A stretch of DNA of 30,231 nucleotides from a virus (Duplodnaviria > Heunggongvirae > Uroviricota > Caudoviricetes): the IMG/VR virus record IMGVR_UViG_2695420421_000005, one strand, 5' to 3'. The position numbers and the translations under genes were made by a program. Below are positions 4,141 to 10,612 of this stretch, in pieces (the stretch's first letter is position 1; each line of letters opens with the position of its first letter). The notes beneath the pieces are model-generated. The model made no database searches and was not told the DNA's origin. It saw nothing but the letters and a program-made list of their open reading frames with translations.

Positions 4141-4332
4141 TTACTCCCCGTTCACCGAAAAATCACGATAGAAACGTTTCCACATACGATAAGTCTGCGC
4201 GAGTTGTTCACCACGAAACATCGCCTTCCTGGCCTTCATGTTTTCCTTGTGAGACTTTCGATCTATGAACCAAAACCATTGCTGGAACACACAAAGCAAG
4301 AGACACAAAGATAATATCCACTGATTACCCAT
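4141..4332 (-). CDS. Possible small membrane protein (63 aa) translationally coupled to repA
   Basis: ATG at 4332 overlaps the repA stop; hydrophobic ILSLCLLLCVFQQWFWFI followed by a basic tail; short, so uncertain. Confidence 0.3.
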   Translation of the reverse strand: MGNQWILSLCLLLCVFQQWFWFIDRKSHKENMKARKAMFRGEQLAQTYRMWKRFYRDFSVNGE

Positions 4333-7300
4333 AGAAAGCGCCCTGCTCTTCGTAGCTGCATGAGCTATTCCCGGTAATGTATTCTCGTAACCGCCGCAGT
4401 TCATTGCTGGACAAGTGATCCATGAACTCTGTGAGGTACAGAGATGCAAACGTCATAGCTATGCTGGTTGATGACCATGATGACATAGTGGCCAGCTCCT
4501 CACCGGAAAGCGCACTCATCGCCCAGGACTCAGGAACAGCCACCGGCAATACGGCCAAAGCCTCAGAAATTACTGAATGAGGGGCGTTTTGAACCTGCTC
4601 GTTTGTGGATCGCGTTTTATCATCCATATATATATTGAGATCCAAATCGCGATCCATTTCGATGGCTGTCTTCTCGGCTTTACGCGTTTTTAGGGTTAGG
4701 CCATCTTTCTGACGCTGAACAAGAATATCCAGCATAAATGCCGCTGATTCAGGCTCAACAAAACGCAAGGTTGGACGCTTATCGCCGTCTCTGCCGCGAC
4801 GTTTACCTGTTTTAAGGCCAAGAGAGTCGCAAATGTTTTTAAACAACGCTTCCGGCACTTTAGGCTTCCCTTTTGGCGTCATAAAACCACCAATGTGCAG
4901 AACGTTATTCAACAGGTCACGGCGTTCGGCTGTCATGAGATTATCTCGAGCGAATTTGAGACGCTCCTGAGTCGCCTCGCCGGTCATAGTCTCAGGGTTG
5001 ATACCGCAGTCGATAAAGTACTGCCGGAGAGTTGCTGATTTAAGCGCATAGAAACCGCGCGCCCCGACTTCAACAGTAGGAGTAGCTTTTACCTTGTGAT
5101 CGATTATTCCAGGGAATTTAGTTTTAAAGACATCATCAGCCTGCTCGCGAGTCATCGCGGTCACTACAAAATATTGCCACTGTCCCGCCTGACGGTATGC
5201 GTAGGTAAAATTGATGGCTGCTTCTTCCCGGTCGTAACGACGAGCTGTTACCTCATCTAAAAGCATTGTTTCATAGCGGCGAACTTTGTCTCGAGCACCA
5301 TCGAAATAGAATTTCAGTGTGCCTTCTTCAACCGGTAGTTTCAGTTCGTTTTCAATATCCCAGCGGACAAGTTTTGCCTGTTCTTCAAGCGTCAGCGCGC
5401 GTTTTTTTAGCAGTTCTTCACGCTCTGATTCTTGTGGAGTTTCTGTATTGAGGTGCAGATCCAGTGTCTGTTCCCACACAATATCCCGCGCTTCTTTACG
5501 CAGATCTTTACCGATATCATTCGCAGCATAATCGGTGCCCAGCGGCGATACCTTATAACCGTCGCTGTGCATGATGCAGATCATGTTGCTGGCGTAGTCG
5601 TTACGCGCAGTCGCTTCAATTGCGGCTGCTTTAATTTTCATCCTGGTAAAGTCGGTATTGGCCACCCCCATTGATATACGGTCGCCATCGAAAATGACAT
5701 CCGTCAGTTCACCGTTCATACCTGCGGTAGCAAGCAATGCCTGGGCGAATGCTCGTTCTATTTTTTGCGGGTCAGTTTCACGTTTTGCACGAGCTTTATC
5801 AAAGCCGATAATAAATTCTTTTGCTGTACGGTCGCGGCGTAGCATTTGCACTGCGTCGCTGGGTACAACTTCACCACAGAACATGCCGAAATGACGGTCA
5901 AAATGTTTTTGCTCAATCGACACGCCGGATGAAATAGACGGGCTATAAATCAGGCCGTCGTATTTTTTGACCATCTTTTTCGGTTGATTGGTAAATGCTT
6001 CAACTTCTGGCTCTGGTTTGTTTTTCTGGTTTACACACAGAAATTTCTTACCAGGAAAATGCATTCTCAGGGTGGCTGTCACATCTTCTGCAAAGGTGGA
6101 GCTGTCGGTGGCCAACATGATTTTTTCGCCATCCGATACAGCTTTCACCACCTCGGTCATGATGCGATCTTTTTCTGTATAAAAAACCCGGATTGGCTCA
6201 CCTGTTTCGCGGTTGCGAACATCAACAGGTAATTCAATTACGTGGATCTGCAGCCATGCCGGTAAACCTAGTTCTTCACGGCGTTTCATAGCCAGTTCAG
6301 CCAGGTCAACCAGCAGATCGTTCGCATCAGCATCCACCATGATTGGGTGTTGTTCCGTTCTGGCCAGCGCGTCAATTAGCGTATTGAATACAGCCACCGG
6401 GTTTTCCATAGCCCGACCGGAAAGAACGGCACGTAGCCCTTGTGTGGCCTCGTCAAAGCCAAAATAGTCGTGCTGGCGCATCAACGGTTGCCAGCAGTTT
6501 TTAACAATCGAGTTTATGCAGATGGTCAGTTTACTGGCGTATGGAGCCATTTCCTGATAGCCAGGGTCCTGATAGTGCAGGATATCGGCTTTTACACCTT
6601 TTCCTTCAGTCATCATTTCCCACAGGCCACCAATAAGGGAAACACGGTGAGCTACAGAGATACCGCGTTCTGAGCTATGCATTAACGGTCGTAACAATCC
6701 AGTAGATTTGCCGGAACCCATACCAGCACGAACGATGACGATCCCCTGTAGTGATTGCACGTACTTCAGGACGTCATCGGTCATTACCGAAGTTTCAAAA
6801 CGCTTATAGGTGATATGTTGAGGGCGTTTATTGGGATCAGTTATGCGTTCGCTGAAAGAGCGCGGAGCCTGGGCAATACGGCACTTTTTATTCAGGCGAC
6901 GGGCAATGTGGTCTTTTACCGTAGCGCGATAGATATTTTCCAGCCCCATTTCACGCAGAACGATGCAGAACATGTTAAACAAATCTGACGGACTGTTAGG
7001 AACCGGACAGGTTAGCATGCCAATATCCACCGCTCTCAGCAGCTCTTTGGCAAAAGTACGACGGTTATCCCGCTTAATTGTCTTCAGGCGGTTGAGCGTC
7101 AGAGATAGCAAATCAGTGCCGGTTTTCAGGCGGTTTGCTGTTGCAAATAGTTGACGTGCTGTTTCACGAAGTCCACGTAGTTTGTGCAGGTCGTTGAAGT
7201 CACTGCACTCCATTTGCGGATCGTCTTCAAAAGTTGGATAGACGCAGCGGACATCGTTGAATTTCGATAAGATTTCATAGCCAGTCCGCAGGCCGGTATT

Positions 7301-8320
7301 CCCTTTTCCTTCTGTGGCTGATTTCCGGTCATTATCCAGTGCGCAGGTGATTTTTGCCGCCGGGTACATGTTTACCAGTTGTTCCACAACATGAACCATG
7401 TTGTTAGCGGATACAGCGACAACCACAGCGTCAAAGCGTTTATCTTTTTTCGTGGCAAGCCAGATGGATGCACCAGTAGCAAAACCTTCTGTAACAGCGA
7501 TGTTTTGCGCCCCTTTCAGCTCACCGATAACAAAGCAGGCACCGACGAAATCGCCGCTGGTTACTGCGCTGGTCTGGTATTTCCCACCTTGTTTGTCGAT
7601 TCGCTGCCAACCCACAATACGACCATCGTAACGACCGTCCAGGTGAGCCAGAGGGATAGCCATATATGTGGTTGGCCCCCGGTTCCATTTCGCACTGTCG
7701 TGACTGGTCACGCGACGCACATCACATGAACTAAAAACGTCACGAATACCTTTTTTAATCGCATATGGCCATGAGCCGTCTTCTGCAGGAGCATGTTCCC
7801 ACGCGCTGTGGAATGCCAGCCATCCCAGCAAACGTTCATGGTCCATTTGGTTGTTTTTCAGGTCATTAATTCGTTTTTGTTCTTCACGGCGACGACGTGC
7901 TTCGGCCTGACGTTTTATTCTTGCCCGTTCTTCTTCCGGTTGTGCGACCACGGTCGCATTATTCCGTTGTTGCTCACGGCGATATTCAGAAAACAGGAAG
8001 GAGAAACCGCTCCATGAGCCAGCATCGCTGCCTTTATGGACGAAGTTAATGAACGGGTAATCAATCCCTTTGCTGTGTTCCAGCCGGGAGTAAATTTCTA
8101 CGCGTCCTTTGAGGCTCTTTTCGAGAGCTTCTGGAGATGTTTTATTGTATGAAGAGTAACGCTCAACACCCCCGCGAGGGTTGAGTTGGATGTTGTCGGA
8201 ACAGGCAGACCAGTTGATACCAGCCATCTGTGCCAGCTCGGTTAGTTCATCCCGTGCTGCTTCAATTAGCGAGAACGGATCGCTGCCAAAGCGATCCGCA
8301 TAGAAATCGTTTAATGTCAT
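4325..8320 (-). CDS. repA: Replication protein RepA (primase-helicase), 1331 aa
   Basis: Size and position match N15 RepA (~1320 aa); Walker A motif GMGSGKST in the helicase region; sits between the telN side and the cB immunity region as in N15. Confidence 0.93.
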   Translation of the reverse strand: MTLNDFYADRFGSDPFSLIEAARDELTELAQMAGINWSACSDNIQLNPRGGVERYSSYNKTSPEALEKSLKGRVEIYSRLEHSKGIDYPFINFVHKGSDAGSWSGFSFLFSEYRREQQRNNATVVAQPEEERARIKRQAEARRRREEQKRINDLKNNQMDHERLLGWLAFHSAWEHAPAEDGSWPYAIKKGIRDVFSSCDVRRVTSHDSAKWNRGPTTYMAIPLAHLDGRYDGRIVGWQRIDKQGGKYQTSAVTSGDFVGACFVIGELKGAQNIAVTEGFATGASIWLATKKDKRFDAVVVAVSANNMVHVVEQLVNMYPAAKITCALDNDRKSATEGKGNTGLRTGYEILSKFNDVRCVYPTFEDDPQMECSDFNDLHKLRGLRETARQLFATANRLKTGTDLLSLTLNRLKTIKRDNRRTFAKELLRAVDIGMLTCPVPNSPSDLFNMFCIVLREMGLENIYRATVKDHIARRLNKKCRIAQAPRSFSERITDPNKRPQHITYKRFETSVMTDDVLKYVQSLQGIVIVRAGMGSGKSTGLLRPLMHSSERGISVAHRVSLIGGLWEMMTEGKGVKADILHYQDPGYQEMAPYASKLTICINSIVKNCWQPLMRQHDYFGFDEATQGLRAVLSGRAMENPVAVFNTLIDALARTEQHPIMVDADANDLLVDLAELAMKRREELGLPAWLQIHVIELPVDVRNRETGEPIRVFYTEKDRIMTEVVKAVSDGEKIMLATDSSTFAEDVTATLRMHFPGKKFLCVNQKNKPEPEVEAFTNQPKKMVKKYDGLIYSPSISSGVSIEQKHFDRHFGMFCGEVVPSDAVQMLRRDRTAKEFIIGFDKARAKRETDPQKIERAFAQALLATAGMNGELTDVIFDGDRISMGVANTDFTRMKIKAAAIEATARNDYASNMICIMHSDGYKVSPLGTDYAANDIGKDLRKEARDIVWEQTLDLHLNTETPQESEREELLKKRALTLEEQAKLVRWDIENELKLPVEEGTLKFYFDGARDKVRRYETMLLDEVTARRYDREEAAINFTYAYRQAGQWQYFVVTAMTREQADDVFKTKFPGIIDHKVKATPTVEVGARGFYALKSATLRQYFIDCGINPETMTGEATQERLKFARDNLMTAERRDLLNNVLHIGGFMTPKGKPKVPEALFKNICDSLGLKTGKRRGRDGDKRPTLRFVEPESAAFMLDILVQRQKDGLTLKTRKAEKTAIEMDRDLDLNIYMDDKTRSTNEQVQNAPHSVISEALAVLPVAVPESWAMSALSGEELATMSSWSSTSIAMTFASLYLTEFMDHLSSNELRRLREYITGNSSCSYEEQGAFYG
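7943..7958. repeat. sopC-like centromere-type inverted repeat TGCGACC-AC-GGTCGCA (copy 1, inside repA coding sequence)
   Basis: 7-bp inverted arms with 2-bp spacer, same architecture as the F sopC core TGGGACC-AC-GGTCCCA; five copies in this window. Confidence 0.5.
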
Positions 8321-8356
8321 TTTTTAGCCATTCCATACGAATTATGTTTTTTCGGG

Positions 8357-8385
8357 TTGAAAAAATCCGCAGGAGCAGCCACAAT
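8357..8385 (+). promoter_or_regulatory. Candidate promoter for a short plus-strand transcript antisense to the repA leader
   Basis: -35 TTGAAA (8357-8362), 17-bp spacer, -10 CACAAT (8380-8385); would give an ~80-nt RNA containing hairpin GACGG-AAT-CCGTC (8402-8414) and ending at the 8444-8471 terminator. Confidence 0.3.
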
Positions 8386-8443
8386 AAACGCATCTTGAAT
8401 TGACGGAATCCGTCGCGTTACTGTGGCTGCTTCCTGAAAAGGA

Positions 8444-8471
8444 CCCGAGTTTGCCGACTCGGGTTTTTTTT
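8444..8471. terminator. Intrinsic terminator in the repA upstream/leader region, potentially bidirectional
   Basis: Stem CCCGAGT/ACTCGGG with 6-nt loop followed by T8 on the plus strand; on the minus strand the same hairpin is followed by TCCTTTTC and lies downstream of cB and upstream of repA. Confidence 0.65.
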
Positions 8472-8565
8472 CGTCTTTTTTCTGCTGCTGTAACCTGAGT
8501 CAACCCACAGAACATATGCTCTGCATTAAACCAGATTTACAGCAAACAATAAACCCCGTATTAAG

Positions 8566-9162
8566 TCATCTACCCTCAACCATGAATGATTTGATCGTTC
8601 CGACTATTTGGTGAACAAATTCAAGATCGCTTTTCCTGAAGATGGCGCGTTGTGAATTTGTTCCGTCCAGATAGTAATTTTCATCATCAAAACGGGCCAG
8701 GCGCTGGATGGTGATATTTCCTGCAGTATCACGAACCAGAACATCCTCGCCGGGGACCAGTTCCAGCGCAGAATCGACCAGGAGAAAATCGCCAGGCTGA
8801 TAGTTTCCCTGCGCCAGATTGCTGATAGTTAACGCATAAACAGTATTGCGCTGGCTGATGAATGGCAGGAATCGCTCAGTATTTGGAACCTGTCCTGGCT
8901 TCCACTCTTCATCAGGTCCACTTTCAGTTGTGCCAATAACAGGAATGCGATCAGGGTCATATTCTGTCCCATACAGCACCCAATGCACTGGCTTGCGTAA
9001 GCATTTAGCCAGGGCAATACCTATCTCCAGTGACGGCATTACGTCGCCACGTTCTAAGTTTTGGACGCCTGCAATAGAGATATCGACAGCCTCAGCAACT
9101 TCTCGCAACGTCAGCTTCATCTCTAAACGGCGTGCTTTCAGTCGTTCGCCTCGTGTTTTCAT
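8566..9162 (-). CDS. cB: Prophage repressor CB (CI-like: N-terminal HTH plus C-terminal S24/LexA-like domain), 198 aa
   Basis: N-terminal HTH (LTLREVAEAVDISIAGVQNLERG) and C-terminal peptidase S24-like fold region; divergent from cro across an operator-containing spacer. Confidence 0.9.
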   Translation of the reverse strand: MKTRGERLKARRLEMKLTLREVAEAVDISIAGVQNLERGDVMPSLEIGIALAKCLRKPVHWVLYGTEYDPDRIPVIGTTESGPDEEWKPGQVPNTERFLPFISQRNTVYALTISNLAQGNYQPGDFLLVDSALELVPGEDVLVRDTAGNITIQRLARFDDENYYLDGTNSQRAIFRKSDLEFVHQIVGTIKSFMVEGR

Positions 9163-9184
9163 AGCTTAATCATAAATGATCTTC

Positions 9185-9226
9185 TTATAGCTGGCTATAA
9201 AATTTATTTATTATAGCTGGCTTTAA
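9185..9226. promoter_or_regulatory. Operator region between cB and cro: two 16-bp palindromic sites TTATAGCTGGCTATAA (9185-9200) and TTATAGCTGGCTTTAA (9211-9226)
   Basis: Two near-identical inverted-repeat sites 26 bp apart in the divergent intergenic region; TATAAT at 9242-9247 just upstream of the cro ATG. Confidence 0.6.
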
Positions 9227-9253
9227 TTGTTGTTTATTGTTTATAATAACAAC

Positions 9254-9475
9254 ATGAAACCAGAAGAACTTATTCGCCACTTTGGCAGTGTAGAAAAAGC
9301 AGCGGCAGGGGTAGGTGTAACACCCGGAGCTGTTTACCAATGGTTAACCGCTGGAGAGATTCCTTCATTGCGGCAAAGCGATATTGAAGTTCGTACTGCT
9401 TATAAGCTGAAGAGTGACTTTACAACTCGGCGGGTAAAGCAGTCGATTAAGGAGAGTCGTAAGCGTGGAGCTTGA
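9254..9475 (+). CDS. cro: Cro-like HTH regulator (73 aa from the ATG at 9254)
   Basis: Small basic HTH protein (HFGSVEKAAAGVGVTPGAVYQWL) divergent from the repressor gene; the ORF-track start at 9227 is TTG, the internal ATG is more plausible. Confidence 0.8.
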   Translation: MKPEELIRHFGSVEKAAAGVGVTPGAVYQWLTAGEIPSLRQSDIEVRTAYKLKSDFTTRRVKQSIKESRKRGA

Positions 9476-10175
9476 GTATATACGCAGCTGCGTCTCTACG
9501 GCATTGGCTGATGTTCATTATCGCCAGCGTGGCATTCTGGAGGTCCAGCTTGAGCAGATGCGTCTCGGTAGATCAGGACGGTTTAACAATAAACCAGTCC
9601 GGTCAATCAGTGTGGGGGATGATAACTCATACGAAGTGTCCGTTCCTGCTGAGCCGGTTAGATTCCACCAGGGGAAAACATTTAAACAATCATCAATGTT
9701 GCTCACTGATATTGATTTTCAGAGCGCCAGCTGGCGCAGGGCTATTGGTCAGTTGAATAACGAGGAATCAGCCTGGCTTTATTATTGCTACGGATGCAAG
9801 CCTGATTACAACAATGATGTGATTGTTTGTCAGTGGTTATGGCTTGATTTTCTGGTTGCTCATTCGGGGGGCGGCTTTAAAAAAATGAAGGCCTCCACGA
9901 AAAAAGCCATGCGGAAATTGATTTATTACGCGGCACAGCAGGTTAAATCAGAACTTACGTGTGCTGAGGCAGTTGATGAGAGAGAACAGGACAGGCATCT
10001 GAGTCTTCTACTGAATATATCTATTGATAGCTGGAGACAAGATTATAAAGAACGCTGGCTTTTAATTAAGTCGCGATGTCTGAGCTTAAATCGAACTGCA
10101 TTATTAAATGCGGCGGAGAAGCGCAGTGAAATCATCAAACGCCATCGGGCAGGAAGTGCCATTCTGCCTTTGTAA
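9465..10175 (+). CDS. Hypothetical protein (236 aa), positional analogue of the Q antiterminator in a cB-cro-Q arrangement
   Basis: GTG start overlapping the cro end with AAGGAGAG upstream; product assignment is by position only, no motif confirmed. Confidence 0.65.
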   Translation: MELEYIRSCVSTALADVHYRQRGILEVQLEQMRLGRSGRFNNKPVRSISVGDDNSYEVSVPAEPVRFHQGKTFKQSSMLLTDIDFQSASWRRAIGQLNNEESAWLYYCYGCKPDYNNDVIVCQWLWLDFLVAHSGGGFKKMKASTKKAMRKLIYYAAQQVKSELTCAEAVDEREQDRHLSLLLNISIDSWRQDYKERWLLIKSRCLSLNRTALLNAAEKRSEIIKRHRAGSAILPL

Positions 10176-10182
10176 ACAAGTT

Positions 10183-10428
10183 ATGTTCAGGAAACCGTCG
10201 AAGCCAGAATTAAGGTATTCGGGGGTAAGAAATGAATATGTTATCTGGTGTCCAACTTGTGGTTACAGGACACGACCAGATAGTAATAAGCAGTCTGTAA
10301 TTGCCGATTGGTATTTATCAAATCAGCCAGGTAATAAGCATATAGAAAATCTTTGGATTAAGCGTTACTTGGAAATCAGAGAGGGTGCGACCGTGGTCGC
10401 ACAAGAAAATGAAAATAACGCCATTTAA
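10183..10428 (+). CDS. Small zinc-ribbon-like protein, possibly Lar-family restriction alleviation protein (81 aa)
   Basis: CPTCG plus VIADWYLS resembles the Lar-family CPFCG...AI.AWN pattern, but only one CxxC is present; start at the internal ATG after the upstream stop. Confidence 0.4.
   Translation: MFRKPSKPELRYSGVRNEYVIWCPTCGYRTRPDSNKQSVIADWYLSNQPGNKHIENLWIKRYLEIREGATVVAQENENNAI
10386..10401. repeat. sopC-like inverted repeat TGCGACC-GT-GGTCGCA (copy 2, within the 3' end of the Lar-like ORF)
   Basis: Same 7-2-7 inverted repeat as the other copies. Confidence 0.5.
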
Positions 10429-10612
10429 GCAGGGGCCGATGACGCATGATGAAGCAGAGCGTCTTTCAGATAATTATCGGCGGCGTGGTAAGAAAGTTCT
10501 GGTTGTTCGTTCTGATTTTTTAGGTGATGGATATTGCGTTTATGTTCATTTACCTGAATCAGAAAGAACGCCAAAACCATCCAGAACATATCAACAGAAA
10601 ATTTGGGTATAG
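10409..10612 (+). CDS. Hypothetical protein (67 aa)
   Basis: ORF with internal ATG; no clear RBS; no family recognised. Confidence 0.4.
   Translation: MKITPFKQGPMTHDEAERLSDNYRRRGKKVLVVRSDFLGDGYCVYVHLPESERTPKPSRTYQQKIWV

Follow-up and report, generated by a model that had tools for sequence, protein, structure and literature searches.

The cB–repA spacer of an N15-like phage-plasmid

The window, i.e., the whole stretch of DNA analyzed here (30,231 nucleotides (nt), IMG/VR record IMGVR_UViG_2695420421_000005), was found by sequence comparison to belong to an N15-like linear phage-plasmid, and the present work concerns the spacer between its genes cB and repA and the putative role of this spacer in the control of repA. 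The gene order in the window is repA, cB, cro, and Q, with cB located upstream of repA and facing the cro-like and Q-like genes on the plus strand, while the region of interest sits between the cB stop codon and the repA start codon, the same position as in N15. The 501 bases around it were 99.8% identical to Escherichia phage PhiR46_1 and 98.4% identical to YDC107_1 (blastn), these bases and the spacer shared approximately 80% identity with N15 and phiKO2, and the CB proteins of the window and of N15 were 78% identical. The two flanking genes were delimited as follows:

4325–8320, minus strand: repA open reading frame (ORF), 1331 amino acids (from the ORF list)
8318–8320, minus strand: repA start codon (from the ORF list), aligned with the repA start in the N15 record U45242
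8566–9162, minus strand: cB (from the ORF list)

The orthologous region of N15 is annotated in the GenBank record of the immB region (U45242; Lobocka et al. 1996), and an inhibitory RNA has reportedly been discussed in later work on N15. In the homologous spacer the record lists a ‘Pinc; promoter of putative antisense RNA’, a ‘putative terminator of RNA antisense to repA transcript’, a ‘putative terminator of repA leader transcript’ and a ‘PL; putative promoter of repA gene’, together with the CB operators OL1 and OL2. Every one of these spacer features could be mapped onto the window by alignment (Pinc at 8357–8362 / 8380–8385, antisense terminator at 8444–8471, leader terminator at 8433–8463, OL1 at 8514–8529, PL −10 at 8525–8530, OL2 at 8537–8552, and PL −35 at 8548–8553). 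The two spacers have identical Pinc hexamers, spacer length, terminator hairpin and PL −10, with the operators in the same register, but they differ in the sequence of the body of the predicted RNA (a tail and a stem-loop, SL-I, below), with an apical GACGGAAUCCGUC element, and in the operator sequences.

For the comparative analyses, an unbiased set of 31 distinct sequences was retrieved by BLAST or RepA similarity, independently of the leader blocks described below. A wider set was collected by pattern scans of viral, genome, and metagenome contigs, bringing the distinct variable segments to 32 in all.

A predicted antisense RNA within the repA leader

The features on the plus strand of the spacer, together with the opposite reading of its hairpin, are:

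8357–8362, plus strand: Pinc −35 hexamer TTGAAA, found by promoter scan, the same as the N15 Pinc −35 at 56–61
8380–8385, plus strand: Pinc −10 hexamer CACAAT after a 17-nt spacer, hexamers and spacing identical to N15
8390–8471, plus strand: predicted antisense RNA of approximately 80 nt (tail 8390–8404, SL-I 8405–8434, terminator stem-loop 8436–8471)
8444–8471, plus strand: predicted intrinsic terminator of the antisense RNA (8-bp G+C-rich stem, 4-nt loop, U8), annotated in N15 and invariant in all relatives
8433–8463, minus strand: opposite reading of this hairpin, towards repA (tail UCCUUUUC); N15 label ‘putative terminator of repA leader transcript’

The hairpin (CCCGAGTTTGCCGACTCGGG, 8444–8463) is followed on the plus strand by T8 at 8464–8471, and a second T-run (T6) lies at 8476–8481. 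In the plus-strand reading eight U directly adjoin the stem, whereas the minus-strand tail (UCCUUUUC; CCUUUUUC in the N15 leader) has 5–6 U in 8 nt and a U tract that is interrupted beside the stem. A d'Aubenton-Carafa-type terminator score was +38 for the plus strand vs. −32 for the minus strand. The first-pass annotation had described a strong hairpin with T8 antisense to repA, which holds at 8444–8471, and had called the terminator bidirectional, a label that is well founded for the plus strand (score and U8) and weakly supported for the minus strand (score and interrupted tail); the annotation of phiKO2 likewise places a ‘putative bidirectional’ terminator at the hairpin, while in Yersinia phage PY54 the counterpart hairpin lacks a U tail towards repA and would be a one-directional terminator. 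Judging from these sequences, the hairpin would primarily terminate a plus-strand RNA and would be a weak or partial terminator for transcripts from PL and for cB read-through. As the terminator is strong in the plus direction only, something is presumably transcribed rightward from nearby.

The candidate for this transcription is Pinc, located 87 bp upstream of the hairpin, and the plus-strand promoter that had been proposed ca. 85 bp upstream of the terminator corresponds to TTGAAA-17 nt-CACAAT at 8357–8385. Consensus scans returned two promoter-like sites vs. 2.5 expected by chance and one terminator-like site vs. 2.0 expected by chance. As these counts do not exceed chance, the argument depends on folding statistics and on comparison. 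The predicted start of the plus-strand RNA, approximately 7 nt after the −10 hexamer, was inferred from the position of that hexamer.

Folding of the plus-strand RNA 8392–8472 gave z = −3.8, and all 32 variants were predicted to fold alike, with a single-stranded tail of approximately 14 nt (mean P(unpaired) of the tail 0.86), SL-I and the terminator hairpin. The RNA is fully complementary to the repA leader, where its target ends approximately 55 nt upstream of the ribosome-binding site.

A palindrome (TTTTTTC-GGGTT-GAAAAAA, 8347–8365) spans the Pinc −35 hexamer and is nearly invariant in relatives, with a single base differing in Klebsiella phage Kpn74 (L013); it could be a protein-binding site, an UP-like element, or a small leader hairpin.

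Invariant blocks surround a hypervariable, putative specificity stem-loop

Three features were delimited by comparison of the relatives:

8346–8392, both strands: invariant block, identical in 31 sequences; its DNA holds Pinc, and in the leader RNA it provides the 3′ arm of helix H
8393–8435, both strands: hypervariable segment, comprising the antisense tail and SL-I and, in the leader, the 5′ arm and apex of helix H
8405–8434, plus strand: SL-I, the variable and putative specificity stem-loop, 13 pairs in the covariance-model alignment

The block 8436–8482 was likewise invariant in the 31 distinct sequences, while the flanking coding DNA was approximately 80% identical. Between the two blocks, the segment 8393–8435 was full of substitutions and indels, and these ca. 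40 nt form the most variable stretch in 1.3 kb. Mean pairwise identity was 0.54 for the variable segment, approximately 0.8 for the flanking genes and 0.96–1.0 for the adjacent blocks, with the variable segment conserved less than both of its flanks in 339 of 351 pairs. This invariant-hypervariable-invariant pattern is as expected of a promoter, a specificity segment, and a terminator. In one pair of IMG/VR contigs (L033 and L035) the flanks were 98–99% identical and the variable segment only 48%, which suggests a cassette-like replacement of a specificity segment; such a swap between near-identical backbones fits selection on pairing specificity.

Despite this variability, the ability to form SL-I was retained. 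A covariance model built from seven gaplessly aligned sequences matched all 32 variants (the window at 8390–8471), and in the resulting alignment changes on both sides were present in 7 of the 13 pairs. Paired states accounted for 91.3% of the cells, vs. 40–59% when the partners were slid, and the covariation score was 0.245 vs. 0.05–0.08 in the slid controls. One third of the cells (128/380) contained G.U, and a minus-strand reading would pair only 59.5%. Likewise, SL-I averaged −9.0 kcal/mol vs. −3.8 kcal/mol for its reverse complement and was the more stable of the two in 32/32 variants. RNAalifold on a plain MAFFT alignment recovered the terminator only, because indels misalign SL-I, and the covariance-model alignment was used instead. 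This strand-specific signal argues for a real structured plus-strand RNA at 8390–8471. The variable segment is thereby under two constraints, as it is self-complementary in the predicted antisense RNA and complementary to a fixed arm in the leader.

A predicted leader hairpin formed with the complement of Pinc

The fixed arm belongs to a long hairpin of the repA leader:

8371–8435, minus strand: leader helix H (variable 5′ arm 8435–8414, apex 8413–8393, invariant 3′ arm 8392–8371), present in the minimum free energy and centroid structures

Its core is an inverted repeat, GCAGCCACA (8375–8383) pairing with TGTGGCTGC (8422–8430), that had already been pointed out by the first-pass annotation; a repeat search extended it to 14 nt with 93% complementarity (8374–8387 / 8418–8431), and folding extended it further to an imperfect helix of approximately 22 bp (8371–8392 with 8414–8435). 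Because the left arm of the repeat, which overlaps the Pinc −10, precedes the predicted start of the plus-strand RNA, helix H can form only in the repA leader. The leader fold reached z = −4.8, and helix H was predicted in all 32 variants, with energies of −27 to −39 kcal/mol in 31 of them (the value for L013 spans a longer stretch and is not comparable). In every variant, the complementarity of the variable arm to the fixed arm was better than in 200 shuffles (z = −4.1 to −8.7).

Helix H thus joins the variable target to the fixed complement of Pinc, and the same layout was found in PY54. We tentatively propose a self-locking antisense target, in which a variable segment pairs with the fixed complement of the Pinc −10 region in every variant and, independently, in PY54, leaving a kinetic window for antisense binding and making the segment an exchangeable cassette as long as it remains complementary to itself (SL-I in the antisense RNA) as well as to the fixed arm; this idea appears possible, though on balance doubtful. 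If true, a short DNA segment, constrained in three ways at once, would be a portable incompatibility determinant for the phage-plasmid family.

In the window, the 3′ arm of helix H is also complementary to repA codons 2–4 over 10 nt, a match that N15-type sequences lacked in our own comparison with the N15 sequence.

The repA promoter, its operators, and the ribosome-binding region

Upstream and downstream of the leader hairpin, the following minus-strand signals and operators were located:

8525–8533, minus strand: PL extended −10 TGgTTTAAT (TG at 8533–8532, hexamer at 8530–8525), mapping to the N15 PL −10 at 225–230
8548–8553, minus strand: PL −35 TTTATT, a poor match, mapping to the N15 PL −35 at 248–253
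8514–8529, both strands: predicted operator OL1, ATATGCTCTGCATTAA, overlapping the PL −10 and the transcription start, homologous to N15 OL1
8537–8552, both strands: predicted operator OL2, TTACAGCAAACAATAA, overlapping the PL −35, in the same register as in N15
8325–8337, minus strand: repA ribosome-binding region UAUGGAAUGGCUA, mapping to the annotated N15 repA ribosome-binding site at 23–35

An extended −10 promoter for repA on the minus strand had been suspected before, and TGgTTTAAT at 8533–8525 bears this out; the plus-strand sequence at this position (ATTAAACCAGA) was invariant in relatives. The predicted 16-bp CB operators keep the TA-N10-TA frame and the N15 register. OL1 matched the window's own OR sites at 9/16 positions (counted by eye), less than N15 OL1 matches its consensus, and OL2 matched the OR site TTATAGCTGGCTATAA (9185–9200) at 11/16 positions. 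This site is one of two near-identical 16-bp sites between cB and cro (TTATAGCTGGCTATAA, 9185–9200; TTATAGCTGGCTTTAA, 9211–9226), both of which are likely OR operators by their sequence. Binding of CB to the OL sites has been shown for N15 and phiKO2 (PMC4997575), and an effect of CB-OL on copy number has been reported for both (PMC4997575; PMC4488713).

The spacer also holds TTTACA-17 nt-TATTAA at 8536–8564 (plus strand), which overlaps OL2, corresponds to an unlabelled plus-strand −35/−10 pair in the N15 record and would direct transcription into cB from its 3′ end, in antisense orientation.

The repA Shine-Dalgarno (SD) sequence was predicted to be mostly paired (P unpaired 0.01–0.33). At position 8337 of the ribosome-binding region the window has A, while 30/30 other distinct sequences have G (plus strand), by which CAUGG in the leader becomes UAUGG. 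A small GUG ORF (MAAPADFFNPKKHNSYGMAKK, 8382–8317, minus strand) starts within the invariant block and ends with a UGA that overlaps the repA AUG; the same ORF is present in Klebsiella-type and N15-type relatives, where the stop lies 3 or 24 nt before the repA AUG.

Proposed control of repA and alternative explanations

We consider it likely that this spacer is the replication-control region of an N15-type phage-plasmid, in which an antisense RNA from Pinc pairs in trans with the repA leader and lowers RepA. In this scheme, repA would be transcribed leftward from PL (8533–8525), which is overlapped by the CB operators OL1/OL2, with a leader of approximately 200 nt. The convergent Pinc (8357–8385), lying inside this leader, would produce an untranslated plus-strand RNA of approximately 80 nt ending at the strong intrinsic terminator, and this RNA would pair in trans with nascent repA leaders and reduce RepA synthesis. 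In addition to the repression of PL by CB, this reduction would determine copy number and incompatibility. The leader target would soon be locked into helix H by the fixed complement of Pinc, so that the antisense RNA probably has only a short time for binding until H has formed, or else binds via the apex of H. The blocked step would most likely be post-transcriptional (translation or mRNA decay) rather than attenuation. The comparison itself shows the sequence features, their orthology with the annotated N15 spacer, the covariation and conservation of SL-I and the conservation of helix H; that the plus-strand RNA is made, that it acts negatively and by which mode is what we infer from this arrangement.

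Several points weigh against this scheme. In the record U45242 the antisense RNA of N15 is itself labelled ‘putative’, and the match of Pinc to the promoter consensus is ordinary (9/12 positions), such sites being expected by chance. In equilibrium folding, the accessibility of the repA ribosome site did not change consistently with the target blocked (0.11 vs. 0.11), and the energies of helix H showed no strand asymmetry. Positions 8358–8377 were 100% invariant in the wider set, in whose added loci the invariance at pattern positions was forced by the search. The SL-I alignment was fitted to a model from seven sequences, which biases the pair counts towards the structure, and the variants are mutually related, so that the counts exceed the number of independent events.

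The first-pass annotation had offered antisense-RNA or attenuation control of repA, and the two parts fared differently. The former is supported by the N15 annotation and the covariation of SL-I; the latter is weaker, with a terminator that is poor in the repA direction and 5′ of the target. In an attenuation mechanism, the hairpin 8444–8463 would be a regulated leader terminator, with the antisense RNA or another factor deciding its outcome, as in pT181 or pIP501. The label ‘putative terminator of repA leader transcript’ in N15, the word ‘bidirectional’ in phiKO2 and the 5–6 U in 8 nt of the minus-strand tail would agree with this, but the hairpin stands at the 5′ end of the antisense target and would be completed before the variable target is transcribed, its minus-strand U tract is interrupted beside the stem and scores far below the plus strand, and PY54 has no U tail at all. 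Past the target, inspection revealed only a 4-bp hairpin before a U6 run, no conserved anti-terminator was found, and in folds with the target blocked no conserved hairpin followed by a U-run appeared after the target, as pT181 or pIP501 would have it. Since the only canonical terminator precedes the target, attenuation of the pT181 type does not fit, and attenuation in general seems unlikely. Transcriptional interference acting in cis only, where polymerases from the convergent Pinc and PL (approximately 135 bp apart) would collide or occlude each other and the plus-strand RNA would be a by-product, could account for the convergent layout with a terminator between the promoters and for the invariant Pinc block. 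We regard it as quite unlikely, as a by-product would not be expected to keep its stem-loop through compensatory and G.U changes, nor would the replacement of the RNA body as a cassette between near-identical backbones be expected; moreover, the name Pinc, given by the N15 authors, implies an effect in trans in our own reading.

It is very unlikely that there is no antisense gene at all, i.e., that the hairpin is a terminator or insulator of cB, the promoter a chance match, and the conservation due to leader structure or protein sites. Consensus scans at chance level, the position of the hairpin approximately 100 nt downstream of the cB stop, the structural constraint on the leader that is evident from helix H and the palindrome spanning the −35 hexamer would all be compatible with it, but the terminator is strong opposite to cB and weak in the cB direction, the pairing of SL-I is specific to the plus strand, and PY54 has an independent −35/−10 at the same relative position. 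Coupling to a leader peptide, of the IncFII tap / IncI repY type, would require that the repA ribosome site opens when the GUG ORF (MAAPADFFNPKK, from 8382) is translated, and that the antisense RNA prevents this translation. The ORF begins 8–10 nt beyond the antisense target and occurs in all variants (ending at +3, −3, or −24 relative to the repA AUG), and an activating event is plausible given that the repA SD is mostly paired. Nevertheless, no SD precedes the GUG, which is buried in helix H, the stop position is not conserved, and conservation of the ORF is inseparable from the nucleotide invariance of the block, which makes this coupling highly improbable. Antisense pairing in trans with the repA leader therefore remains the preferred explanation.

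Other candidates were examined and rejected. An apparent ribosome-site switch, in which the SD of a truncated leader became hidden in the fold once the target was blocked, was an artefact; it disappeared when the leader was folded from its correct 5′ end together with 43 nt of repA. An upstream anti-terminator (UUGACUCAGG vs. the 5′ half of the hairpin) was found in the window type only. A 57-amino-acid minus-strand ORF (8515–8342), along with a similar ‘hypothetical protein’ of KpLi5, was considered spurious, as its ATG is absent in N15 and non-triplet indels are crossed.

Relation to other control systems

The most informative distant comparison was with PY54, whose RepA is 50% identical and whose cI-repA spacer shows the same layout in unrelated sequence; blastn detected no nucleotide similarity between PY54 and the region. 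On the antisense strand it carries TTGCGC, 18 nt, and TACAAT, followed by an RNA of approximately 75 nt with tail, stem-loop, and terminator, and the 3′ arm of its leader hairpin overlaps the antisense −10. The PY54 spacer (L123, 1040–1210) also has a U8 run with a weak hairpin just upstream of the repA SD (1165–1190). PY54 is without N15-type OL operators (PMC4488713). The spacers of VP882 and Kpn_R1 were compared as well and yielded nothing informative.

In the IncFII plasmid R1, the rep leader encodes a small, constitutive, terminator-ended RNA (CopA) with a target upstream of the rep ribosome-binding site, and the repressor CopB acts on the rep promoter in addition. The region described here resembles CopA/CopT in having a terminator-ended RNA complementary to the rep leader upstream of the ribosome-binding site, with CB as the parallel of CopB. 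It differs in that the complement of the antisense promoter holds the target in a long hairpin, that RepA is of the 1331-amino-acid primase-helicase type, and that no convincing leader peptide was found. An Rfam search of 7000–10500 (E ≤ 1) gave no CopA or other family and nothing at gathering score; the lone sub-threshold match, NsiR1 on the terminator hairpin (26 bits vs. a cut-off of 39), was rejected as generic terminator similarity. Likewise, RF01695 (the C4 / CA-type antisense RNAs of P1, P7, and N15 immA) had no match in the repA leader region. By the sequence criteria applied, the region belongs to the N15-type repA control regions and would be CopA/CopT-like in its working, though not homologous.

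OOP of lambda is a 77-nt terminator-ended antisense RNA encoded between immunity and replication genes, and it overlaps the 3′ end of cII. The predicted RNA is similarly short, terminator-ended, antisense, and placed between immunity and replication genes, but OOP overlaps the cII 3′ end instead of the leader of a replication gene, and there was neither homology nor an Rfam match.

A further analogy comes from the E. coli ‘p-p47’ phage-plasmids (47–49 kb), in which copy-up mutations were found 58–86 nt upstream of repA in a region named ‘CopA/CopT’, with repA transcript levels unchanged (bioRxiv 10.64898/2026.08.19.745698). According to its authors this family does not cluster with N15 (bioRxiv 10.64898/2026.08.19.745698), and it is used here as an analogy only. 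In the present window, 58–86 nt upstream of repA corresponds to 8378–8406, an interval that takes in the Pinc −10, the predicted transcription start and the tail.

Occurrence and further observations

The leader was also present in 214 PLSDB plasmids, chiefly of Klebsiella and Escherichia. Among 5426 complete E. coli genomes, 18 carried it, in every case on a plasmid.

Some contigs carried the repA leader twice, as inverted and identical copies (L050/L054, L042/L073, L045/L076, L075/L083, and L064/L068), and the same was seen in some PLSDB records. They have the appearance of inverted-dimer assemblies from linear plasmids with hairpin ends (or of replication intermediates), not of two separate elements.

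The cB-side spacer was rearranged in two relatives: Kpn74 (L013) has its repressor gene annotated on the other strand, immediately after OL2, and in a K. aerogenes plasmid (L009) approximately 50 nt including OL2 are missing. The predicted antisense RNA gene and its terminator were intact in both.

Elsewhere in the window, two Rfam families matched above their gathering scores on the minus strand, C4 antisense RNA (RF01695) at 2774–2860 with 73.6 bits and isrK at 2886–2959 with 62.8 bits, which presumably mark an immA-type secondary immunity locus as in N15 and P1.

Implications

The initial interpretation of this spacer is supported and matches the 1996 database annotation (U45242), and no new kind of mechanism is revealed. 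The present analysis contributes the pattern of a variable cassette, evidence for an RNA from covariation and strand specificity, and the conserved self-locking hairpin of the leader. Phage-plasmids of the N15 type are frequent in clinical Escherichia and Klebsiella, and N15 is the backbone of the linear pJAZZ cloning vectors (PMC2847241). In these elements, the control region probably sets the copy number and decides which of them coexist in one cell. The segment of approximately 40 nt between the fixed blocks would therefore offer a simple typing marker for likely incompatibility groups, as well as a target for copy-number engineering.

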